Shown piece by piece: positions 2,488 through 57,822 of a stretch of 64,000 bases of DNA (positions are counted from its first letter, which is position 1; every line of letters begins with the position of its first letter). The notes under the pieces were generated by a model. It was not told the DNA's origin. It saw only the letters and a program-made list of their open reading frames with translations, and made no database searches. Location: assembly GCA_001775755.1 (NCBI GenBank), contig MEYF01000099.1, positions 5,739 through 69,738 on the forward strand, given 5' to 3'. A program made the position numbers and the translations under genes. The stretch is from Candidatus Aminicenantes bacterium RBG_19FT_COMBO_65_30 (GTDB lineage: Bacteria > Acidobacteriota > Aminicenantia > Aminicenantales > Saccharicenantaceae).

Positions 2488-3822
2488 TCAGGACTTGGCT
2501 TTCTGCGGGATCTCCAGCCTCTGTCCCTCACGCCGGTCGGCCCGCTTGAGGAGAAGAGCGAACATCAGCCCGATGAGGCCCAGGCCGGCGAACATGATCT
2601 GGCTCCCGACGTAAGAGCCCGTTTTGTCGCGCAGCAGCCCGTTCAGGAGCGGGAAGAGCCCCAGCCCGATGTTCTGAATAGCCGTCATCAGCCCGAAGGC
2701 CGTGCCGACCCGTTCCGACCTGACGATGAGCGGCACGGACGGCCACAGGGCCGCCGGGACGAGGACGAAGGCGAAGCCGAGGAGGATCATCGGATAAACC
2801 GGATAGATCTTCGTCAGACCCATGGCCAAATGGCAGGGGATGAGGAGGAGGGACCCGGCGATCATGAACGTCGCCCTTTTTCCCACCCGGTCGATGAGCC
2901 GCCCGGCGAAGGGCGCGAGGAGCATGGAGGCGAAGATGATGATGCTGGTGATGCCGCCGGCCGTGCTGAAGATGTGGAGGAGGTTGTTGAAGACCTGGGC
3001 CAGGAAGCCCCCGGCGGCCGACGCCGTCCTGGCGATCCCCCACTTGGTCACGAAGAAGTCCGTCGACAGGCTCTGGAAGGGGAAGATGGCCGCGTAGAAC
3101 GTGAAGCAAAGCGCGGTGACATACCAGAAGGTCGGCTTGAACTCCTTGATGTCCTTGAAGACGATCTTGTCGCCGGCGCTCTCGTCGCGGAGGTTGAGGG
3201 CCTTCTCGCCGCGCTTGTCCATGACGATGTAGAAGAGGTTGCCGACGAGCGACAGGGCGCAGGCGCCGACCGCGGCCAGCAGGGCGTAGCGGTAGCTGCC
3301 GAAGTAGCTCGAGAAAAGCTCCCCCGTGTTGAAGGCGAAGAGCGATCCCAGGCGGCTCACCGTCAGCTGGACGCCGAAGGCCATGGCCATTTCCTTGTTC
3401 TTGAACCAGCGGGCCAGCATGGCGCTCTGGGCGACGACGAGGGGTTCGGAGCCGGCCCCGAAGACGAACCGCCCGAGGAAGATCATGGGGATGCTTCTGG
3501 CCTGCCAGACGATCGCCGCGCCGGCGAGGACGAGGACCGAGAAGATGATGCTGGCCTTGCGCGTCCCCAGCCGGTCGATGAGCATGCCGCCGAACAGGAC
3601 GACCAGGATGGCGGCGACGCTGTACATCGTGTTCATCGTGCCGACGGTCGCGCGCGCCGCCTTGAGCTCCTCGATGAGCGACGGGGCGATGGCCCCTATG
3701 ATGTCGTAGGCGAAGTAGCTCCCGAACGACAGCGAGGAGATGAAGAGGAGGTTGGTGAATCTATAGATCGGCCTCGTCGGATGGAAGAAGCCGACCGGCG
3801 CGGCGGCCTCGGTGTTCGTCAT
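2488..3822 (-). CDS. MFS transporter (12-TM, MFSD1/lysosomal dipeptide transporter-like)
   Basis: The translation is hydrophobic with an MFS-like repeat pattern (GRLIDRVGKR). The start is taken at Met 3822 with a GGAGG RBS. Confidence 0.8.
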   Translation of the reverse strand: MTNTEAAAPVGFFHPTRPIYRFTNLLFISSLSFGSYFAYDIIGAIAPSLIEELKAARATVGTMNTMYSVAAILVVLFGGMLIDRLGTRKASIIFSVLVLAGAAIVWQARSIPMIFLGRFVFGAGSEPLVVAQSAMLARWFKNKEMAMAFGVQLTVSRLGSLFAFNTGELFSSYFGSYRYALLAAVGACALSLVGNLFYIVMDKRGEKALNLRDESAGDKIVFKDIKEFKPTFWYVTALCFTFYAAIFPFQSLSTDFFVTKWGIARTASAAGGFLAQVFNNLLHIFSTAGGITSIIIFASMLLAPFAGRLIDRVGKRATFMIAGSLLLIPCHLAMGLTKIYPVYPMILLGFAFVLVPAALWPSVPLIVRSERVGTAFGLMTAIQNIGLGLFPLLNGLLRDKTGSYVGSQIMFAGLGLIGLMFALLLKRADRREGQRLEIPQKAKS

Positions 3823-3920
3823 GAGAGGGCCCTCCGATCTCGCTGTAGTCCGGTCATCCGAGGCTTCTATCTTCCGGAATCCGGCGAAAATAATCAAGCG
3901 CCTTTATCCGGTCCCCGCGG

Positions 3921-3932
3921 TGCTGGTATAAT
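3921..3932 (+). promoter_or_regulatory. Extended -10 element TGgTATAAT upstream of pgi
   Basis: tgcTGgTATAATcc lies about 27 nt upstream of the pgi ATG. Confidence 0.4.
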
Positions 3933-3958
3933 CCCCCCTACTGGAAAGGGACCCGCCC

Positions 3959-5662
3959 ATGAACATGCGAAGCCGCGACATCCAGATCGTCAACCCGGAG
4001 CGCCTGGCCCCCGAGCTCGCCCAGGGCCTCCGCGACCTCGAAAAGGACGCGATCGTCCGCCGCATCTGGGACCGGGATTGGACGGTCTGGAAATCCGAGG
4101 ACAAAGAGATCTCCAACCGCCTCGGCTGGCTTGCGTCCCCGCTGACGGCGGAAGAGGAAGTCCCGGATCTGGAGGCTTTCACGGCTTCCGTCCGCGGCGA
4201 CGGGCTGACCAAGGCGGTCGTCCTCGGCATGGGCGGCTCGAGCCTCGCGCCCGAGGTCTTCGCCCGCGCCTTCGGGACGCGCGAAGGCTTTCTCGAGCTC
4301 GAGATCCTCGACACGACCGAGCCCGAAACCGTGACCGCCGCCGCAGCGCGTTTCGACCTCGAAAAAATCCTGTTCATCGTCTCTTCGAAGTCCGGGACGA
4401 CGGCGGAGCTCGTCTCTCTCCTGTCCTTTTTCTACGACCAGGTCCGCCAGGAACTCGGCGGCGAGCGCGCCGGTCGTCATTTCGTCGCCGTCACCGATCC
4501 GGGGACTCCGCTGGAGGCCCTGGCCGGAGATCTCCATTTCCGCCGCGCGTTCCGCGGCCGGCCGGACATCGGCGGACGGTTCTCCGCTCTCTCGGCGTTC
4601 GGCCTCCTGCCGGCGGCCCTCAAGGGCATCGACCTGAGGCGCCTCCTGTCCCCGGCCCGTGCCATGGCCGACAAGTGCCGCCTCGAAATCCCCGCGGACA
4701 ATCCCGGCGCCTTCCTCGGGACGGTCCTGGGAACGGCCGCGGCGAAGGGTCTGGACAAGCTGACTTTCTTCGTCCCGCCGCGGCTCGAGCCGCTGGCGGG
4801 CTGGCTCGAACAGCTCGTTGCCGAGAGCACGGGAAAAGAAGGCCGGGGCATCGTCCCGGTCATCGAGTCCGGCCCCAAGAATATCCGGGATTATGGAAAG
4901 GACCGCGTGTTCGTCGATTTCCCGGCGTCACGCGACGCGGAACCTGACGAAGGCGTCCGTGCCCTCGCCGATACCGGAGCGCCCCTCATCCGGCTGATCC
5001 TGGACGATCCCTATTCCGTGGCCGGCCACATCTTCCTCTGGGAATTCGCCACGGCTGTCGCCGCTCATTTCCTGCACATCAATCCCTTCGACCAGCCGGA
5101 CGTCGAGGCGGCCAAGAGAAAAGCGCGGCAGGTCCTGGCCGGCGCCGCCCGGGCAGGAAGCGCCGCCCCGGAGGACCGCTCACCCGCCGGCGAAGGGCTG
5201 CGGATCGCCGGGTCAGGCCCGCAAGAAGGCCCCGAGGATGCCGTAGCCCGATTCCTGGGCGGCTGCCGCGAGGGGGATTATCTCGCGGTGCTGGCCTTCC
5301 TCCCGAAGAGAGCGGGAATCGAGGAGCTCCTCGCCGGGCTGGCCGACCGCCTCCGGCTCAAGACACGTTTGCCCGTGACCCTCGGCTTCGGCCCCCGCTA
5401 CCTCCACTCGACCGGCCAGCTCCACAAGGGCGACGGGAACAGGGGCCTTTTCCTGATGCTGGTCCCGGCCGTCTTGCCGGAGGTCGAGATTCCCGCCGTC
5501 CCGGGGATCGCCCGGCCCGCCGCGGATTTCGCCGGCCTGTTCACGGCTCAGGCGCGGGGGGACGGGATGGCTTTGGCGGAGAAAGGGCGGCGGGTTCTGA
5601 CGATCGAGTTCGGGAGCCCGATCGAAGCGGGGATGGTGAAGCTCGCGTCCCTCCTGGGGTAA
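3959..5662 (+). CDS. pgi: Glucose-6-phosphate isomerase (the PGI type found in Tal-Pgi proteins; SIS domain)
   Basis: RIWDRDWTVWKSED...RLGWL and LGMGGSSLAPEV (SIS) motifs; 567 aa. Confidence 0.8.
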   Translation: MNMRSRDIQIVNPERLAPELAQGLRDLEKDAIVRRIWDRDWTVWKSEDKEISNRLGWLASPLTAEEEVPDLEAFTASVRGDGLTKAVVLGMGGSSLAPEVFARAFGTREGFLELEILDTTEPETVTAAAARFDLEKILFIVSSKSGTTAELVSLLSFFYDQVRQELGGERAGRHFVAVTDPGTPLEALAGDLHFRRAFRGRPDIGGRFSALSAFGLLPAALKGIDLRRLLSPARAMADKCRLEIPADNPGAFLGTVLGTAAAKGLDKLTFFVPPRLEPLAGWLEQLVAESTGKEGRGIVPVIESGPKNIRDYGKDRVFVDFPASRDAEPDEGVRALADTGAPLIRLILDDPYSVAGHIFLWEFATAVAAHFLHINPFDQPDVEAAKRKARQVLAGAARAGSAAPEDRSPAGEGLRIAGSGPQEGPEDAVARFLGGCREGDYLAVLAFLPKRAGIEELLAGLADRLRLKTRLPVTLGFGPRYLHSTGQLHKGDGNRGLFLMLVPAVLPEVEIPAVPGIARPAADFAGLFTAQARGDGMALAEKGRRVLTIEFGSPIEAGMVKLASLLG

Positions 5663-6753: not shown

Positions 6754-9045
6754 TCAGCCTTTTCTTTTCACGCTGCCGGACTTGGACGAGGAGCCCGAAG
6801 ATTTGGAAGACGAGGAGCTCGACCTGCCGGAGGACGCCGAGCGGCCCGAAGAGGACGACCCGCTCGATCTCGGCGCGCTATAGGAACGCCCGGAGGATGA
6901 GCTCGTCGATCTCGGCGCGCTGATGCTGCGGCCGGAAGAGCCGCTCGACCGGGAGGGGGCGGAATATGAGCTTCGGGACTGGGAAGAGGACGATGAACGG
7001 GAGGAGCCGGGCCGGGAGTAGGAGGGGGAGCTCGACCGGGCGGAGGAGGACGGGCGCGAGATCGAAGAGGAGGAACGCGAGGCCGAGGACGACGGGGCGC
7101 TCAGCCGCGAGGACGTCCGGGAGACTGACGATCTGGAAGAATAGGTCGGACTTTGGGACCGCGCGGACGACGTTCCGGAAGTCGGGCGTGGCGAGCTCCC
7201 GAGCGATCGTGAAGGCGTCGAGTCCGTCCGGTTCGAGCGTGCCGGGTATTCCGTGGACGGCCGGTCCGATCCGGACCGGATCGTCCGGGCTGTCGTCGAG
7301 GTCCGCTGCCTCACGGCCGTCGATTCGGACCGCGAGCTCGAGGGGTCATTCTTGATGGTCTCGCCTTTCTTGGTGACGGCGCTTCCGGATTCATTCTCGG
7401 TCTTCCGGGTTCTCTGCGGCTCCCGCGCCGTTCCGGACTTGGGAGATCCCGATGCCTGTCCCTGGGACGGGGAGACGCGGGCGGCGTTGCTCCCTGTCTC
7501 GGCCCCGCTCCTGCGGACGGGCGCGGCGACGGCGTTCCGACGGTTTTCGGAAGCGACGCCCTCACTGCGGTTCCCGGAGACCTTCTGGCTCGGATAGGAC
7601 CGGATAGCCCGGCTTCCCGTCTCGGGGTTCTTGACGGCCGGCCGCGAAACGGCGTTCCGGTTCGGGTTGGACAGGGAAACGTCCCGTTCTCTCGTCCGGG
7701 CGCCCGAGTTGACCGTGCCCTGTCTCAGACGCGAAGAGGACAGGGAACGCGACGGCGCCAGCGACTTCACCTCGCTCCGGCTGCCGGGACGGTCAGCCAG
7801 GGCCCGCTTGGCCGCGAGGGCCTGGGGCCGGGCGTTGTCCACGGCCGGACGGATCGAGGGCTGTTCGGCCCTGAGGGCCACCTTATCGATGCGGTTGAGC
7901 TCGCTGCGGCCGATCTGGCGGCGGCCGATGTCGCGGGACTGGAGATGGTCGCGGCGGACGACGGTCATAGCCCGATTGTGAGCCGAGAAATAGCGGTCGT
8001 CGAACCGATCATAGAAGCGGTTGTCGACGAGCAGGCCGGGACGGTTATACCAGGTGAGAGGGCACCAGCCGATGTGGTCGCGGTCCCACCACCAGTGCAC
8101 CCAGGCCGGCCCCCAATGATTCCGGGGGATCCAGTACCAGCCCAGACCGAAGCGCCAGTTCCAGCGGCCGTAGTGGTAGACCGGCCAGCCCCAGGATTCG
8201 GAGGAAACCCAGGTCCAGCCGATAACGGGATACCAGACCCAGCGGCCATAGGAATAGGGCCGCCAATCGTCATAATAGGACACGTTCGGGACCCAGACGT
8301 TGCCGTAGGGCCGTTCGTAGACCCAGTTGCCGTTCTGGTCGAGCTCTTCCTCGTATTCTTCGATCTCGGACGGGAGGTACTGCCGCTCGCTTCTCTGGGA
8401 AAGCTCGGCGTCCCGGGAGCCGTTCCAATCGTCGAAGCCGTCCTCCCGGGAGATAGAGTATTCCGGTTCACCGAGGAGCCGGCCGTCGGCGGCCGTCACG
8501 GTCTCCTTGTCCCTGACGAGGACGGACCCGTCTTCGGCGGCGGCTTCCAGACTGCCCTCACGGACGAAGACCTCGGTTTCCTGGTCGAGTCTGACGTCGA
8601 ACCTGTAGAGCCCTTCCTCGAGGACGTAGAAGGACGCGTCGGGAGTATGGACTTCGATGCCCTTGTCCAGGGCGAGATGGCTCACCCGGAAATAGGCGCT
8701 GCCTTCGGTGAGATGGATCTTGATGCGCTCCTCCCCTTCCTTGGGAAGGACGGCGAATTCGACCTTGGTGTAATCGTTGAGGCGGAGGTAGTTCCGGCGG
8801 CCGAAGTGGATCTCGGCCTGGCCGTTCTCGGTCCCCATCTTGTCTCCCTGGACGAGGGCGAGGTTGACCTCTCCCTTTTCATAGCCCAGGTCCGATGTCC
8901 TCTGGACATAGACCGAGCCGTTGACATAGCTCAGGCGGGCGAAGCTGTAAGGATAGAATCCTTCGTCCTGGGCCATGAGGCCGAGGGGGATGGAAACGAT
9001 GAAAGCGATCGCTAGGAGCGAAGCCTGTCTCATCATCTTGTTCAT
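6754..9045 (-). CDS. Secreted FecR-domain-like protein with a Trp-rich central region (DUF6600-like) and a ~330-aa Ser/Arg-rich low-complexity C-terminal tail
   Basis: Signal peptide MNKMMRQASLLAIAFIVSIPLGLMAQ. FecR-like beta region. W-rich block YYDDWRPYSYGRWVWYPVIGWTWVSSESWGWPVYHYGRWNWRFGLGWYWIPRNHWGPAWVHWWWD. A tail of SRSSSS/RSxSAPRS repeats. GGAGG RBS. Confidence 0.75.
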   Translation of the reverse strand: MNKMMRQASLLAIAFIVSIPLGLMAQDEGFYPYSFARLSYVNGSVYVQRTSDLGYEKGEVNLALVQGDKMGTENGQAEIHFGRRNYLRLNDYTKVEFAVLPKEGEERIKIHLTEGSAYFRVSHLALDKGIEVHTPDASFYVLEEGLYRFDVRLDQETEVFVREGSLEAAAEDGSVLVRDKETVTAADGRLLGEPEYSISREDGFDDWNGSRDAELSQRSERQYLPSEIEEYEEELDQNGNWVYERPYGNVWVPNVSYYDDWRPYSYGRWVWYPVIGWTWVSSESWGWPVYHYGRWNWRFGLGWYWIPRNHWGPAWVHWWWDRDHIGWCPLTWYNRPGLLVDNRFYDRFDDRYFSAHNRAMTVVRRDHLQSRDIGRRQIGRSELNRIDKVALRAEQPSIRPAVDNARPQALAAKRALADRPGSRSEVKSLAPSRSLSSSRLRQGTVNSGARTRERDVSLSNPNRNAVSRPAVKNPETGSRAIRSYPSQKVSGNRSEGVASENRRNAVAAPVRRSGAETGSNAARVSPSQGQASGSPKSGTAREPQRTRKTENESGSAVTKKGETIKNDPSSSRSESTAVRQRTSTTARTIRSGSDRPSTEYPARSNRTDSTPSRSLGSSPRPTSGTSSARSQSPTYSSRSSVSRTSSRLSAPSSSASRSSSSISRPSSSARSSSPSYSRPGSSRSSSSSQSRSSYSAPSRSSGSSGRSISAPRSTSSSSGRSYSAPRSSGSSSSGRSASSGRSSSSSSKSSGSSSKSGSVKRKG
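6757..6960. repeat. Imperfect tandem nucleotide repeats of about 42-45 bp encoding RS(Y/I)SAPRS..SSSGRS units of the Ser/Arg tail
   Basis: Repeated ctcgatctcggcgcgct at 6866-6882 and 6907-6923, plus the repeated SAPRS peptide units. Confidence 0.5.
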
Positions 9046-51545: not shown

Positions 51546-53474
51546 ATGCTGAAGACCATGAGACGCAACGTCAAGTCGCTCAAGCCCGTCCTTTGGCTCA
51601 TCGTCGCGACATTCGTCGTCGCCATTTTCGCCATTTGGGGCGGCGCGGGCCGCTTGGGCGAGGCCGGCCGGTCCGACACCCTGGCCATCGTCGGCGGCGA
51701 GAGGATCCTCTCCGACGAGTACTTCCAGGCCCTTCGCTCGCGGCTCGAGGCCATCGAGAAGCAGTTCGGCGACCTCAACGCCAACCTCATCCAGCAGCTC
51801 GGCGTCCCCCAGCAGACCCTGGAACAGATCGTCCAGCAGAGGCTCCTTCTCCGGATCGCCTCGGACATGGGCCTGCGGGCGACCGGCGAGGAGGTCCGGG
51901 CCAAGATCGTCGCTTACCCCGCGTTCCAGCAGAACGGACAGTTCATCGGCTTCGAGGACTACAAGCGGATCCTGGACTACAACCGCATCCCCCTCGGGGT
52001 TTTCGAGGACGGTCTGAGGCAGGACGTCGTCATCGGCAAGGTCGTCCGCGTCCTGACGGCCGGCATCTTCGTCACCGACGAGGAGGTCTGGGAGGGCTAC
52101 CGGAAGCAGAACGACACGGCCAAGATCGAGTACCTCGTCGCCGAGACGGCCAAGTCCGAGATCACCGGCACGCCGACCGAGGCCGAGCTCCGGGCCCACT
52201 TCGACAAGAACGCCTCGGGCTACAGGATCCCCGAGACGCGGACCGCCGACTATGTCGTCCTGAAGACCGACGACCTCAAGAAGGAGGTCGCGGTCAAGGA
52301 CGCCGAGATCGACAAGTACTACAGGGACAACGCGGCCCAATTCCAGGAGCCCGACAAGGTCCGGGCGAGCCGGATCTGGCTGCCGTTCACGGCCGCCGAC
52401 AAGGACGCGGTCCTGGCCCAGGCGCGCGAAGTCCAAAAAAGGGCCGCCGGCGGCGAGGAATTCGCCGGCCTGGCCCGGGCGTTCTCCAAGGACGACAAGG
52501 CCGCGTCGGGCGGCGACTGGGGGCTTTTCGACTGGAAATCCCTGACCGCCGCGGAGACCGAGGCCATCGGCATGCTCGACAAGGACGGCGTCTCCGGCAT
52601 CGTCGAGATCGACACGGGCGCGGCCGTGTTCAAGGTCACCGAGAAGGCCCCCGCCGTGACCAAGCCTCTGGCCGAGGTAAGCGCCACGATCAAGGGCCTC
52701 CTCGAGGACGAGAAGGCCCGGGCCCTGGTCGCCGAAAGGATCCAACGGCTCGAAAAGCTGGCCCGCAAGGAGAAGAGCCTCGACGTCGCCGCCCAGAAGG
52801 AAGGGCTCAAGGCTCTCCCGACCGGCCCCCTCAAGAAGGGCGACCCTCTGGGGGATTTCGATTCGTCCGGCTCCATCAGCGAGGCGCTCTTCGGCCTCAA
52901 GGAGAAGGAGATCTCCGCCCCCGTCTTCACCTACGCCGGCGAAGCCCTGGCTGAGCTCAAGACCGTCGAGCCGGAGCGGCCGGCGAAGTTCGAGGAGGTC
53001 AAGGACCGGGTCGAGAAGGACATCCTCGACACCTTGAAGAAGGAGAGGGCCCAGGCCCGGCTCCGGGAGATCGGGGCGACCCTCAAGGACGACTGGGGCG
53101 CCGCGGCCGCGAAGCTCAAGCTCGAGTACAAGTTCGTCGAGGCCCACAAGAAGGAGCAGTACCTGAGCCTCGTCGGGGAAAGGCCCGAGGTCGACAGCCT
53201 CGTCTTCAGCCTGCCCTTCAAGCAGGCGAGCGAACCGCTCGCCGTGGACGAGGGCTACGCCATCTTCCGCGTCCTCGAGAGGAAGGAAGCCACCCGGGAG
53301 GAGTTCGAGAAGGCCAAGGCCACGGAAAGGGACACTCTGCTCGAGCAGAAGAAGAACAAGTTCCTGCAGTCCTACATGGCCAAGGCCCGCGAGGAAAAGA
53401 AGGTCCGGATCAACTACGACACCTTCCTCCGCCTCAACAACGAAATCCTGGCGAGGTATTCGAAGACGCCCTGA
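51546..53474 (+). CDS. Periplasmic chaperone / peptidyl-prolyl isomerase PpiD-like (SurA N-terminal domain, parvulin-like domain)
   Basis: N-terminal TM helix (LKPVLWLIVATFVVAIFAIW), PpiD-like length and composition. Start at Met 51546. Confidence 0.7.
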   Translation: MLKTMRRNVKSLKPVLWLIVATFVVAIFAIWGGAGRLGEAGRSDTLAIVGGERILSDEYFQALRSRLEAIEKQFGDLNANLIQQLGVPQQTLEQIVQQRLLLRIASDMGLRATGEEVRAKIVAYPAFQQNGQFIGFEDYKRILDYNRIPLGVFEDGLRQDVVIGKVVRVLTAGIFVTDEEVWEGYRKQNDTAKIEYLVAETAKSEITGTPTEAELRAHFDKNASGYRIPETRTADYVVLKTDDLKKEVAVKDAEIDKYYRDNAAQFQEPDKVRASRIWLPFTAADKDAVLAQAREVQKRAAGGEEFAGLARAFSKDDKAASGGDWGLFDWKSLTAAETEAIGMLDKDGVSGIVEIDTGAAVFKVTEKAPAVTKPLAEVSATIKGLLEDEKARALVAERIQRLEKLARKEKSLDVAAQKEGLKALPTGPLKKGDPLGDFDSSGSISEALFGLKEKEISAPVFTYAGEALAELKTVEPERPAKFEEVKDRVEKDILDTLKKERAQARLREIGATLKDDWGAAAAKLKLEYKFVEAHKKEQYLSLVGERPEVDSLVFSLPFKQASEPLAVDEGYAIFRVLERKEATREEFEKAKATERDTLLEQKKNKFLQSYMAKAREEKKVRINYDTFLRLNNEILARYSKTP

Positions 53475-53527
53475 GTCCTGCCGCCTGAGTTTCGCCCGAT
53501 ACGAGCGAACTGAGAAAGGAGGTCGAG

Positions 53528-55531
53528 ATGGAGACGTCCCGAAAATCCCTCCCGCCCGAGGCCTACCAGGAGCTCGCTCCCGGGGAGGTCTACAAACCTT
53601 ACGTGCCGGCCGAGTCGGCCGTCCCGGAGGTCACGGTCCGCTCCGTCCTCTGGGGGCTGTTCATGTCGCTCTTCTTCACCTTCTCCATCGCCTACCTCGG
53701 GCTCAAGGTCGGCACGGTGCCCGAAGCCGCCATCCCCGTGGCCATCCTGGCCGTCGGCATCGGCTACGTATATAAGCGGAAGAGCACGATCCTCGAGAAC
53801 GTCATCCTCCAGTCGATCGGCGCCGCTTCGGGCGCCCTGGTGGCCGGGGCCATCTTCACCATCCCGGCGCTCTTTATCCTCGGCCTGCCGACGGACATCG
53901 TCAAGATCTTCCTTTCGACCTTCCTCGGCGGCTGCCTGGGCATCCTCTTCCTCATCCCCTTGCGCCGCTACTTCTGCGTGGAGCAGCACGGCAAGCTGCC
54001 CTTCCCGGAAGCCACGGCCACGACCGAGATCCTGGTCTCCGGCGAATCCGGCGGCAAGCAGGCCTGGGCCCTGATCCTTGGCGTCGCCGTCAGCGGCGTC
54101 TACGAGTTCCTGGCCATCGGCGTCCGGGCCTGGGACGAGCTCATCAACTTCCGCTTCCTGCCGTTCATGGACAACCTGGCCGTCAAGACCAAGATGGTCC
54201 TCAAGCTCGACGCCCTGTCCGCATTCCTCGGACTCGGCTACGTCATCGGCCTGCGCTACAACGCCGTCATCGTCGCCGGCGGGCTCCTGTCGCACTTCGC
54301 CTTCATCCCGGCCATCTGGTTCCTCGGCCAGCACGTCCCCGGGGCGGTCTATCCGGGCACGGTGCCCATCGTCCAGATGAGCGAAACCCAGATCTTCAGC
54401 ACCTACGTCCGCAACATCGGCATCGGCGCCATCTTTATGGCCGGCGTCCTGGGCATCATCAAGTCCATGCCGGTCATGATCAAGTCGTTCTCGCTCGGCT
54501 TCCGCGAGATTTTCAAGGGTCAGAAAGCGGGCGCGGCGGTGGAGCTGAGGACGAACCGCGACATCAAGATGAAGACGATCATCCTGGGGCTCCTGGCCAC
54601 GGCCGCCGGCCTCTTCCTCTATTTTCTCTGGATCTCGAACCTCAAGCTGGCCATCATCGGCGTCCTCATCTGCGTCCTCCTCTCGTTCCTGTTCACGACG
54701 GTCGCCGCCTACGCCATCGCCATCGTCGGGACGAATCCGGTCTCGGGCATGACCCTGATCACGATCATCCTGTCGAGCGTCATCCTCCTCGGGGCGGGAC
54801 TGTCGGGGGAGCAGGGGATGGCCGTCGCCCTGCTCATCGGCGCCGTCGTCTGCACGGCCCTGTCGATATCGGGGAGTTTCGTCACCGACCTCAAGATCGG
54901 CTACTGGCTCGGGGCGACGCCGAGGAACCAGGAGAGGTTCAAGTTCGCCGGAGTCTTGATCTCGGCCCTGACCGTGGGCATCGCCATCTACATCCTGGAC
55001 AAGGCCTTCTCGTTCCAGAGCGGGACGCTGGCCGCCCCCCAGGCCAACCTGATGGCGACCGTCATCAAGTCGATGATGTCGCGCGAGCCCGTGACCTGGC
55101 TCCTCTACGCGATGGGGGCCTCGGTGGCCCTCGTGGCCGAGCTGGCCAAGGTGCCGCCGCTGGCCTTCGCCCTGGGCATGTACCTGCCCCTGCCGCTGAC
55201 GACGCCGCTCCTCGTCGGCGGCTTCATCTCCCACCTGGTCAAGAAATCCACCAAGGACAAGGAGCTGGCCGAGCGCCGCAACAACCGCGGCACGCTCATC
55301 TCCTCCGGCTTCATCGCCGGCGGCGCCCTGATGGGCATCGTCCTGGCCGTCCTCAAACTGACCAATCTCGACCACTTCGTCAGCCTGGGGATTTCCATGG
55401 TTCTCGAGAACGGCCGCTGGGTCGACGGGACGCCCGCGGGCTGGTTCACGGGTTACGGCCAGATCATCAGTCTCGCGGCGTTCCTCATGCTCTGCGGCTT
55501 TGTCTACTGGGACGCGCGGCGTACAAAGTAA
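53528..55531 (+). CDS. OPT-family oligopeptide transporter
   Basis: 667 aa polytopic membrane protein with OPT-like sequence. Confidence 0.8.
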   Translation: METSRKSLPPEAYQELAPGEVYKPYVPAESAVPEVTVRSVLWGLFMSLFFTFSIAYLGLKVGTVPEAAIPVAILAVGIGYVYKRKSTILENVILQSIGAASGALVAGAIFTIPALFILGLPTDIVKIFLSTFLGGCLGILFLIPLRRYFCVEQHGKLPFPEATATTEILVSGESGGKQAWALILGVAVSGVYEFLAIGVRAWDELINFRFLPFMDNLAVKTKMVLKLDALSAFLGLGYVIGLRYNAVIVAGGLLSHFAFIPAIWFLGQHVPGAVYPGTVPIVQMSETQIFSTYVRNIGIGAIFMAGVLGIIKSMPVMIKSFSLGFREIFKGQKAGAAVELRTNRDIKMKTIILGLLATAAGLFLYFLWISNLKLAIIGVLICVLLSFLFTTVAAYAIAIVGTNPVSGMTLITIILSSVILLGAGLSGEQGMAVALLIGAVVCTALSISGSFVTDLKIGYWLGATPRNQERFKFAGVLISALTVGIAIYILDKAFSFQSGTLAAPQANLMATVIKSMMSREPVTWLLYAMGASVALVAELAKVPPLAFALGMYLPLPLTTPLLVGGFISHLVKKSTKDKELAERRNNRGTLISSGFIAGGALMGIVLAVLKLTNLDHFVSLGISMVLENGRWVDGTPAGWFTGYGQIISLAAFLMLCGFVYWDARRTK

Positions 55532-55549: not shown

Positions 55550-56497
55550 ATGAAAGCCAACAAGCTCTATTCGGCGGCCGACCGGGCCATCAACCAGGCC
55601 CTGCGGCTCAAACCCGGCGAGAAATACCTCCTGGTCACGGATAAGCAGAAGATGGACATCGCCGAGGCCCTGGCCTATTACGCGAAGCAGGCCGGCGCCG
55701 AGACGACGACTTACCTTATGACCGAGACCCTGCGGCCCATCACCGAGCCGACGCGGCAGTTCAAGGACCTCATCCGCAGCGCTTCAGCCACGACTTACCT
55801 CCTCGAAGGCCGGTTCCCGGAAAAGCCCTTCCGCGGCTTCATGGTCTCCGAGGGCGGCAAGCACGGCCGGATCTGCATGATGCCCGGCTTGACCCGGGAC
55901 ATGATGGAGCGTCTGGTCAACGTCGACTTCTCGGAGATGGATAAGTTCACGAAGAAGGTCATGCGGGCGATGAAGGACGCCGAGGACGTCGTCGTCGAGA
56001 ACCCGGCCGGGACGAGGATCGCCTTCAGCGTCAAGGGCCGGGCCTGGCACAACGACAACGGCAACATCAGCAAGAAGGGCATGCACGGCAACCTCCCGGC
56101 CGGCGAGTGCTACACGGCCCCGGTCGAGGAGACGTTCACGGGGAAGATCATCATCAGCCTCATCGACGATAAGCTCGGCCACGGGGAGATGACGTTCAAG
56201 CACGGCAAGCTGGTGGACTTCAAGGGCAAGGGCATCGCCGAGGTCATCGAGACGATCGGGGGGGACGAAACGGGGAAGATCATCGGCGAGTTCGGCATCG
56301 GCACGAACAAGGGCGCCCGGATTTGCCCCAATATGCTCGAGGCCGAGAAGGCCTTCGGCACGGTCCATTTCGCCATCGGCGATTCCTACGGTATCGGTAA
56401 GAACAAGAGCAAGTTCCACTTCGACGCTTTGGTCGACAAGGTGACGATCACGGCCAAGGGTAAAATCATCGCCAAGAACGGCAAGTTCCTCATTTAA
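55550..56497 (+). CDS. Aminopeptidase (M29/AmpS-like family)
   Basis: 315 aa with ...NLPAGECYTAPVEE... and GEFGIGTN. Confidence 0.65.
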   Translation: MKANKLYSAADRAINQALRLKPGEKYLLVTDKQKMDIAEALAYYAKQAGAETTTYLMTETLRPITEPTRQFKDLIRSASATTYLLEGRFPEKPFRGFMVSEGGKHGRICMMPGLTRDMMERLVNVDFSEMDKFTKKVMRAMKDAEDVVVENPAGTRIAFSVKGRAWHNDNGNISKKGMHGNLPAGECYTAPVEETFTGKIIISLIDDKLGHGEMTFKHGKLVDFKGKGIAEVIETIGGDETGKIIGEFGIGTNKGARICPNMLEAEKAFGTVHFAIGDSYGIGKNKSKFHFDALVDKVTITAKGKIIAKNGKFLI

Positions 56498-56500
56498 ATC

Positions 56501-56639
56501 GGGGACACAATACCCGTTTCAGAATTTCCCGTGGGGCCGTTTCGGGCCAAATGGGAGACAGGGGATGAGAATAGTGAGGCCTGAGCGTGCGTGAACGGAA
56601 GGGAACGATGGGAAATTCGGAAACGGGTATTGTGTCCCC
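56501..56639. repeat. Long inverted repeat: 20-bp perfect arms ggggacacaatacccgtttc / gaaacgggtattgtgtcccc extended by 9 more bp (gaatttccc/gggaaattc); about 30-bp stem, about 60-nt loop
   Basis: Seen directly. The distal arm covers the RBS, start codon and first codons of the downstream C-S lyase gene. Confidence 0.6.
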
Positions 56640-57822
56640 ATTTGACAAGATCATCGACCGGACGGGGACCGAATCCCTGAAGTGGGTCTATCCCCGCAAG
56701 GTCCTCAAGGTCGACAACGCCATCCCCATGTGGGTGGCCGACATGGACTTCGAGGCGCCGCCCGCGGTCGTCGAAGCCATCCGCCGCCGGGCCGCCCACG
56801 GTATCTACGGCTATCCCCTCATCCCTCCGTCGTTCTGGCAGGCCGCGATCGACTGGCTCAAGCGTCGCCACGGCTGGAACGTGCGCAAGGACTGGATGGC
56901 CAAGTCGCCGGGCATCGTCCCGGCCCTGAATTATTGCGTCCGGGCCTTCACCGAACCGGCTGATGGTGTCATCATCCAGACCCCCGTCTATTTTCCGTTC
57001 TATCACGCCGTCGAGAACAACGGCCGCCGCCTCATCCGGAATCCCCTCCGCTTCGACGGCCGCCGCTACACGATGGACCTCGACGACCTCGAAAGGAAGA
57101 TCGACCAGGGCGGACGCCTGCTCATCCTCTGCAGTCCCCATAATCCCGTCGGCCGCGTTTGGACGCGGGAGGAGCTCGAGGGCCTCGGCCGCATCGCCGT
57201 CGAGCGCGACCTCCTTGTCATCTCCGACGAGATCCACCACGACCTCGTTTATTCCGGACATCGGCAGCACATCTTCGCCGCGCTCTCGCCGGAGCTGGCG
57301 ATCCGGACGCTGACCTGCATCGCCCCGAGCAAGACGTTCAACATCCCCGGCCTGTCCACGGCCGTGGCGATCGCGTCCAACCCCAAGCTCCTCGAGGCCT
57401 TCAAGGACGAAACAGAACGGGCCGGGTTCGAGCTCGGCCAGGTCTTCGGCATCGTCGGTTTCGAGGCCGCCTACGCTCACGGCGGGGATTGGCTTGACGC
57501 CCTCCTGCCCTACCTCGAGGCCAACGTCGAGCTCATGGAGAAATTCCTCGAAGAGCGGGTCCCCGGCATCCACCTCGTCCGGCCCGAGGGAACCTATCTC
57601 GCCCTGCTCGATTGCCGGGGTCTCGGCCTCGAGCCCGTCGTGCTCAACGAATTTTTCCTGAAAAAAGCGGGCGTTTATTTCAGCGACGGGATGATGTTCG
57701 GCCCCGAGCTCGCCGGATTCGTCCGCGTCAACTTCGGCTGCCCCCGGTCCCTTCTCGAGGAGGCCCTGGAGCGGATCGAGCGGGCCGTCGCCGGCCTCCC
57801 TGAACGGGCGAATCGTCCTTGA
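56608..57822 (+). CDS. PatB/MalY-family PLP-dependent C-S lyase (cystathionine beta-lyase-like aminotransferase)
   Basis: N-terminal FDKIIDRTGTESLKW and the PLP-lysine SKTFNIPGL. The ATG at 56608 has a GGAAGGGA RBS; alternative starts are 56587 and the GTG at 56632. Confidence 0.8.
   Translation: MGNSETGIVSPFDKIIDRTGTESLKWVYPRKVLKVDNAIPMWVADMDFEAPPAVVEAIRRRAAHGIYGYPLIPPSFWQAAIDWLKRRHGWNVRKDWMAKSPGIVPALNYCVRAFTEPADGVIIQTPVYFPFYHAVENNGRRLIRNPLRFDGRRYTMDLDDLERKIDQGGRLLILCSPHNPVGRVWTREELEGLGRIAVERDLLVISDEIHHDLVYSGHRQHIFAALSPELAIRTLTCIAPSKTFNIPGLSTAVAIASNPKLLEAFKDETERAGFELGQVFGIVGFEAAYAHGGDWLDALLPYLEANVELMEKFLEERVPGIHLVRPEGTYLALLDCRGLGLEPVVLNEFFLKKAGVYFSDGMMFGPELAGFVRVNFGCPRSLLEEALERIERAVAGLPERANRP

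Follow-up and report, generated by a model that had tools for sequence, protein, structure and literature searches.

What kind of element is the long inverted repeat between a peptidase gene and patB in this Aminicenantes genome, and does it control the gene whose start it covers? The repeat occupies 56501-56639 of the 64-kb stretch of DNA analysed here (the window). Its left arm, GGGGACACAATACCCGTTTCAGAATTTCCC (56501-56530, + strand), and its right arm, GGGAAATTCGGAAACGGGTATTGTGTCCCC (56610-56639, + strand), are reverse complements that pair over 30 bp with a single A·G mismatch at arm position 21 (A56521 vs G56619); the outer 20 bp are perfect, and the first-pass annotation of this DNA had described the repeat in the same terms. 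In L001, which is the same species from another sample, arm position 21 is a C and the 30-bp stem is perfect. The repeat had also been called far beyond chance in 64 kb, and it is. Searched at up to three mismatches, the 20-mer occurs in the window as the two arms only (0.00 expected from 100 shuffles), and the 56501/56639 pair is by far the longest inverted repeat of the window. The predicted RNA fold of 56490-56655 reaches -80.1 kcal/mol (z = -9.1), and none of 200 shuffled sequences folded equally well. The arms are separated by a spacer of 79 nt (56531-56609, + strand), longer than the roughly 60-nt loop first proposed. A small GGCC-gtttcg-GGCC hairpin is present in the spacer (56545-56558, + strand) as had been noticed, but it is unused in the predicted MFE structure and lacks conservation in orthologous copies. 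Outside the left arm, the AT-rich flank AAATC (56496-56500) has a partner ATTT at 56640-56643 that extends the palindrome.

The upstream gene encodes an M29/NicX-like peptidase (55550-56497, + strand), and its stop codon (56495-56497) lies 3 nt ahead of the left arm. The downstream gene encodes a PatB-family C-S lyase (56608-57822, + strand; 404 aa as called), which belongs to sulfur amino-acid metabolism. Because the called start is the ATG at 56608, the right arm spans patB codons 1-11, a placement that the first reading had right, and it encodes residues 2-11 (GNSETGIVSP). The PatB family model begins at residue F12 (56641), the exact end of the element, and the conserved part of the gene runs from there; an alternative in-frame start is the GTG at 56632. 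The patB translation start (56596-56610, + strand) consists of an SD-like GGAAGGGAA at 56596-56604 and the ATG at 56608-56610, both supplied by the element. The ribosome-binding site and start codon had been described as engulfed by the repeat: the stem does enclose the SD-like sequence, but that sequence sits in the spacer, outside the perfect stem. Antisense ORFs of 200-650 aa (53414-55375, 55784-56419 and 56494-57573, all on the minus strand) overlap an OPT transporter gene, the peptidase gene and patB. Their translations are of low complexity and rich in Arg, Asp and Gly, typical of spurious frames in GC-rich DNA, and we do not regard them as genes.

A transcript reading through from the peptidase gene is predicted to bury the patB start, in line with the first-pass suggestion. 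Opening positions -15 to +15 around the start is computed to cost 22 kcal/mol in the window, 13-19 kcal/mol in other alleles that carry the element and 4-10 kcal/mol in alleles that lack it. The cost would fall to about 8 kcal/mol if the transcript began inside the spacer. A scan of 56300-56750 for sigma-70-type promoters, whose consensus may not apply to this phylum, found no such site, so a promoter inside the spacer is unsupported. An intrinsic terminator was considered and dropped, since the GC-rich stem has no following run of T (ATTTGACAAG follows it); a scan of the + strand finds no terminator-like site here. The strong predicted structure around the start region of a sulfur amino-acid gene invites its interpretation as a dedicated cis-regulatory RNA, that is, a riboswitch, an RNA thermometer or a translational attenuator. 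However, the region has no Rfam match at E<=10 (over the whole window, the gathering score returns one tRNA only), and a 30-bp perfect helix of about -80 kcal/mol would be unable to melt or switch at physiological temperatures. The orthologous junctions bear on this reading as well.

A metagenome scan for PatB relatives yielded at least four close loci, and the orthologous junctions were examined individually. The close PatB homologues come from Aminicenantes/Acidobacteriota assemblies. Most begin with M/L-K-Y-D-F-D-K, and about a quarter begin with MxNSExGIVSP followed by FDK or KYDFDK. The MxNSExGIVSP stretch, present at the N-terminus of many orthologues, is the translated right arm. Of 120 close orthologues, roughly a quarter to a third carry the element at this junction and 79 (about two thirds) lack it. 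At the empty sites of L201, L202 and L208, the sequence reads ...CTGATTTGAAATACGATTTCGAC; the TGA of the peptidase gene overlaps the TTG of patB in a 4-nt gene overlap, so the two genes are presumably translationally coupled in these alleles. In L211, which keeps the KYD codons, the element is bordered on the left by ...ATTTAAATC and on the right by AAAATACGATTTC.... The window, L203, L205 and L207 carry a second filled form (F1), with the left flank as in L211 and a homologous spacer; F1 lacks 9 nt (AAATACGAT) on its right side, where it reads ...CCCC|ATTTGAC. The spacer is weakly conserved in these alignments except at its 3' end, where GAACGGRWGGGA..ATG, comprising the SD and the start codon, is kept in the window, L203, L205, L207 and L211. 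From this restricted conservation we infer that the element supplies the initiation signals of patB together with about ten extra residues. In L003, both the left flank and the spacer of the patB copy differ, and this copy may therefore be a separate insertion event.

Other junctions hold the element in stages of decay, each with patB intact. In L209 (470-612), the right arm is mutated (..GGCATCATGTCCCC), creating an ATG where the window has the GTG at 56632. Both arms are degenerate in L210 (520-615). In L005 (8340-8360), only ATGTCCCGC is left, a relic of about 8 nt directly after the upstream stop. L005 had been considered as an ancestral empty site; this was dropped because the decayed copies in L209 and L210 make it more likely that the ATGTCCCGC start is a relic of the right arm. 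On the PatB tree, the filled, empty and other states are interspersed. The filled L207 (1-2510) and the empty L208 (1284-3657) are 98.6% identical in patB and 93.9% identical in the upstream peptidase genes, a drop that indicates a recombination break at or near the element junction. This break, together with the spacer common to the F1 and L211 alleles, disfavours recurrent independent insertion at patB. For the patchy distribution, we favour one old insertion that would then have been subject to recombination, deletion and decay.

The first-pass annotation had named a translational attenuator, a thermosensor and a metabolite-controlled switch as candidates, and a leader shared by orthologous patB genes would have spoken for regulation. 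None of the three is supported: a leader is not common to the orthologues, most of which lack the element, the hairpin is destroyed in the decayed copies, and the spacer is poorly conserved. The interspersion of filled, empty and decayed alleles among close relatives indicates that the hairpin is not conserved as a regulator. The patB element is an old, segregating and eroding insertion and not a conserved leader. The junction thus offers a natural series of alleles, from the empty site through the filled form, with or without the 9-nt deletion, to decayed copies and a relic. The series illustrates how an element of this kind can interrupt translational coupling, contribute a start codon and later erode.

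The same repeat occurs away from patB. L003, whose PatB is 84% identical, carries the element twice: its patB copy measures 154 bp, and another of 75 bp lies 8 kb off, in the 3'-3' gap between two convergent genes unrelated to patB. When GTDB genomes, one per species, were searched with the pattern GGGGACACAATACNNNTTTC, at least 118 stretches matched. Among the matches listed, unrelated loci of related Aminicenantes share the 20-nt arm GGGGACACAATACnnnTTTC, and so do metagenome-assembled genomes (MAGs) with labels of many phyla: Aminicenantes, other Acidobacteriota, Omnitrophota, Elusimicrobia, Planctomycetota, Armatimonadota, Nitrospirota and several proteobacterial classes. Loci sharing it within L083-L200 include L097 (164-206), L108 (1306-1349), L120 (1217-1260), L130 (5154-5197) and L134 (6843-6888). 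The similarity reaches past the pattern, and there are several copies per MAG (Aminicenantes POMEDNA-B01, PFL71 and CAZSMW01), spread over several contigs in JAXDAV01, JALHVH01 and CAZSMW01. It had been anticipated that recurrence of the 20-mer would mark a mobile repeat, and the multiple copies in L003, in related Aminicenantes and in other MAGs point that way. Their location beside unrelated genes, in 3'-3' gaps and around a transposase gene is a further argument against a dedicated cis-regulatory RNA for patB, which we consider extremely improbable.

The copies are arranged in three ways. In tight hairpins, a perfect 20-bp stem closes a loop of 3-6 nt; doublets span 39-253 bp, the 139 bp of the window copy falling within this range; and other arms are apparently solo. 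Of 148 arm matches among those listed, 18 were in tight hairpins, 46 had a partner 11-200 nt away and 17 a partner more than 200 nt away; 60 were solo and a further seven were solo near a contig end. Elusimicrobia and Phycisphaerales carry GGGGACACAATACnnnTTTC as tight hairpins, with the perfect 20-bp stem and a loop of 3-6 nt. Arm positions 1-13 are at least 95% invariant across 237 family arms. The 6 nt outside each arm read wAAwyc family-wide, placing a foot of wAAwyc|GGGG on both sides, and the flanks of the window copy fit this foot. The two arms of a copy have changed together: in 36 doublets, 15 of 31 stem pairs were changed on both sides (105 cells), and the covariation score of 0.241, compared with 0.101 in shuffles, was reached in none of 500 shuffles and was far lower in slid controls. 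In the MAG CAZSMW01, four doublets (L095, ~3820-3905; L115, ~4476-4563; L153, 4007-~4095; L156, ~3960-4044) have arms that differ from each other identically in every copy, the left one being ..CCAATTTC and the right one, as reverse complement, ..CCCGTTTC or CCAGTTTC. The repetition of the same asymmetry indicates that the doublet is copied as a unit, as described for REPINs. The near-identity of the arm across about ten labelled phyla may reflect horizontal spread, strict recognition of the DNA by an enzyme, or mislabelled bins.

The sole gene repeatedly enclosed by the arms, among the matches listed, encodes a Y1 transposase, in MAGs labelled as four or five phyla. In L099 (Aminicenantes; 3746-4507), L163, L157 and L103, inverted arms 650-830 bp apart enclose an ORF of about 225 aa. 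Homologues of this transposase adjoin arms in L120 and L148, and fragments are found in L142, L155 and L195. The enclosed ORF matches Pfam Y1_Tnp (PF01797) above the cutoff, with E values of 1e-10 to 6e-14. Its sole NCBIfam match is REP-associated tyrosine transposase NF047646 at 52.8 bits, below the 80-bit cutoff, and its best PDB match is E. coli TnpA-REP (4ER8, E 7e-5). Inspection of the sequences, which are 225-226 aa long, revealed the motifs ENHVH, LWQGRF/LFQGRF, YVERNP/YVELNP and WSS. The transposase ORFs terminate inside an arm (...SENGIVSPI*). Statistics of arm/ORF overlap over all loci were too noisy in these GC-rich sequences to add more than a confirmation of this ending. The ORF on the minus strand of L099 (3742-4419) ends in the terminal repeat as ...GRKKSENGIVSPI*, and those of L148 and L103 end as ...ENSIVSPE* and ...EISIVSPN*. 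The arm reading frame that ends the transposase ORFs is the one that gives the MxNSExGIVSP extension of PatB.

A MITE-like insertion had been among the first-pass candidates, and it is the one that the evidence bears out, through the second copy in L003, the copies at unrelated loci and the arms flanking a Y1 transposase. Such an element could also be a classical TIR-type MITE moved by a DDE transposase (IS630/Tc1-like or IS5-like), with a merely coincidental link to the Y1 gene. Terminal inverted repeats of 26-30 bp, a length of 139 bp, the lack of coding capacity and AT-rich flanks would suit that origin, as would a possible AAAT direct duplication in L211. However, no consistent target-site duplication was found, the possible AAAT duplication being confined to L211 and a few other copies; for the most part, the family flanks pair with each other and lengthen the stem instead of forming direct duplications. 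No DDE transposase was seen between arms among the matches listed, where the Y1 gene is the one that recurs, and the tight 20-bp-stem hairpins with loops of 3-6 nt fit hairpin-recognising HUH enzymes and not DDE enzymes. We therefore hold a DDE origin to be very improbable. The element shares other aspects of generic MITEs: TIRs of 15-30 bp, a length of 70-300 bp, a lack of coding capacity, and an autonomous relative whose TIRs are the same.

Among described systems, the TIRtrons offer the closest parallels. RAYT-like genes flanked by long terminal inverted repeats in place of GTAG REPs have been named TIRtrons or TIRYTs; many of their TIRs share the motif GGGGWSAS, some form moderately abundant repeat families with single, dimeric or clustered copies, and one group of TIRYTs is confined to Acidobacteria (Di Nocera et al. 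2013, PMC3733652). The arms studied here open with GGGGACAC, matching GGGGWSAS. In related genomes the same inverted arms flank a Y1 transposase of about 225 aa and overlap its 3' end, the repeats are dispersed as singles, dimers and clusters (the window holds one copy only), and Acidobacteria-related lineages carry the group. The present arm differs in being conserved far past the published 8-nt motif, across MAGs of many labelled phyla. Most TIRYTs fall in TnpA-Y1 subclass 2.1 (Quentin et al. 2018, PMC6006769), which corresponds to the Group 1 RAYTs of Bertels et al. (2017, PMC5581495). Members of this subclass have a median of 238 aa and carry the motifs NHVH/NH[YF]H, W[EQ], YIELNP/Y[IV]HLNP and SS (Table 1, PMC6006769), and the arm-enclosed proteins resemble them in NHVH, WQ/FQ, Y..(R/L)NP, WSS and a length of 225-226 aa. 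A C-terminal helix-turn-helix-like domain with similarity to Bac_DnaA_C, HTH_23 or HTH_28 has also been reported for subclass 2.1 (PMC6006769). In contrast, the C-terminal ~90 residues of three arm-associated proteins gave no Pfam match at E<=10 to such a domain, in a search whose HMMER filters may hide very weak matches. A full-text literature search with the arm sequence returned no papers, and the searchable literature yielded no mention of this particular 20-26-nt repeat or of its occurrence in Aminicenantes, Omnitrophota, Elusimicrobia and others.

The REPIN/RAYT systems (Bertels & Rainey 2011, PMC3116915; Nunvar 2010; Ton-Hoang 2012) share with the present family the pairing of two inverted repeats and a spacer into a long hairpin, an extragenic and non-autonomous nature, the link to a Y1 transposase flanked by the same repeats, arms that co-vary, and asymmetric doublets copied as a unit (as in L095, L115, L153 and L156). 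In classical REPs, the hairpin foot carries a conserved tetranucleotide, GT[AG]G (PMC6006769), whereas GT[AG]G is absent here and the foot is wAAwyc|GGGG on both sides. Furthermore, a single arm of the Aminicenantes doublets is not itself palindromic, the transposase falls short of the NCBIfam RAYT cutoff (52.8 vs 80 bits), and the distribution looks cross-phylum, while classical REPINs are lineage-specific and classical REPs species-specific. A classical system also combines a single-copy, vertically inherited transposase with tens to hundreds of REPINs per genome; the present comparison covered 8-kb pieces around pattern matches and the 64-kb window. Given the GGGGWSAS arms and the Y1 motifs, without a GT[AG]G foot, we file the element as a TIRYT-family doublet that is REPIN-like and not a classical GTAG REP. 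Members of the IS200/IS605 group and their miniature derivatives (PATEs) likewise combine an HUH Y1 transposase with hairpin recognition in single-stranded DNA and no target duplication; unlike the present family, they have distinct subterminal hairpins at each end and no long terminal inverted repeats, and their transposases are of subclass 1.1 (Y...Q motif), not of the Y...NP type. In size and effect on host genes, the element also recalls Correia/NEMIS (Neisseria), ERIC (Yersinia) and RUP (pneumococcus), which measure ~70-300 bp with 15-30-bp TIRs. Like the in-frame Rickettsia RPEs, these elements insert at or into coding starts, are co-transcribed and may contribute coding sequence. Their hairpins can change mRNA stability or translation, effects that have been measured in those systems, whereas the effect of the patB element is predicted. 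They differ in being tied to DDE transposases or to none known, and several make TA duplications.

Taken together, these findings make it very probable that 56501-56639 is a 139-bp non-autonomous mobile element of a TIRYT-associated family that has given patB a new start, and that it is no evolved sensor. The element is best described as a REPIN/MITE-like doublet, in which two inverted terminal repeats of ~26-30 nt (GGGGACACAATACnnnTTTCCGAATT) and a spacer make up a unit without a transposase of its own. Its full-length relatives carry an IS200-like Y1 (HUH) tyrosine transposase between the same repeats, a TIRtron/TIRYT arrangement of TnpA-Y1 subclass 2.1. By analogy with IS608 TnpA and E. coli TnpA-REP, that transposase would act in trans on the hairpin formed by both arms in single-stranded DNA, and the doublet would be copied or moved. 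The 64-kb window contains neither a second copy (20-mer search) nor a flanking Y1 transposase gene (tblastn with the transposase), so the mobility of the element in this genome is inferred from its relatives only. The allele comparison shows that the element sits exactly on the former stop/start overlap of the peptidase gene and patB, breaking their presumed translational coupling. With it, patB acquired its new SD and ATG, which lie where the right arm meets the spacer, and about ten arm-encoded N-terminal residues.

In a read-through mRNA, the 30-bp stem over the first 11 codons would be expected to lower patB translation, to create an RNase III-type site, or both. Lowered or uncoupled translation of PatB is the most probable effect; cleavage of the long duplex by an RNase is possible by analogy with Correia and ERIC elements. 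The dampening would be a by-product of insertion and not the output of an evolved sensor. The new ATG starts and the lost pairing in decayed copies fit mild selection against the hairpin, not selection for it. The element explains why close Aminicenantes relatives differ in the start of PatB and in a 10-residue N-terminal extension, and it cautions against annotating such a hairpin as a riboswitch or attenuator. The patB element involves no new kind of mechanism. What is added is a defined repeat family (arm GGGGACACAATACnnnTTTCCGAATT, doublets of 39-253 bp and tight 20-bp hairpins, in uncultured phyla) to the little-studied TIRYT systems.

An element that arrived as a mobile repeat could since have come under selection, its mRNA hairpin uncoupling or throttling patB or setting an RNase III processing site. 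Such exaptation would account for the presence of the element at one junction in a sizeable minority of the close orthologues, for the SD and ATG conserved at the edge of the stem, and for the large predicted opening cost. Local selection could also explain why five orthologous copies combine perfect or near-perfect arms with a diverged spacer, but well-paired arms are a general property of the family, also at unrelated loci. Moreover, the genes overlap in the 79 orthologues without the element, and the arms have decayed in L209 and L210 and shrunk to the ~8-nt relic in L005 while patB stayed intact, with new ATGs at a native-like position. Nearly identical patB genes occur with the filled as well as with the empty state, and a recombination break lies at the junction; this looks like polymorphism. 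We consider exaptation unlikely. A wider version, to which we would likewise assign only a small chance, combines an unusually conserved, horizontally spreading Y1-transposase/TIR system with a patB element co-opted as a structure-gated start, through RNase III processing or strong throttling, in place of coupling. If both parts were true, TIRYT doublets would amount to a portable module, widespread in uncultured phyla, by which gene starts inside operons are rewired. The reading that we prefer remains that of a mobile doublet whose effect on patB would be incidental.

Further palindromes ending in GGGG adjoin family copies in L143 (~1800-1860), L140 (~2440-2519) and L170 (~7290-7352 and downstream). 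They have the forms GGGGACACGATCCCTTTTC...GAAAAGGGTCATGTCCCC and GGGGACGTTTCTG...CAGAAACGTCCCC, accompanied by tandem runs of TGTCCCTGAATTAATTT, and may be sister repeat families or clusters. At the patB junction itself, the empty site of L201 (9985-10010) contains two short AT palindromes, ATTT-G-AAAT and GAAAT-ACG-ATTTC, and the insertions lie at or near the centres of these two (56493-56500 and 56640-56646 in the window). These palindromes and the wAAwyc flank could represent a target preference or bases that belong to the element. One PatB protein, P0068 (N-terminus MKKSEISIVSPKYVSPKYDFDK), has a 5-residue duplication, VSPKY VSPKY, exactly at the element/patB junction, which may be a footprint of slippage or repair.
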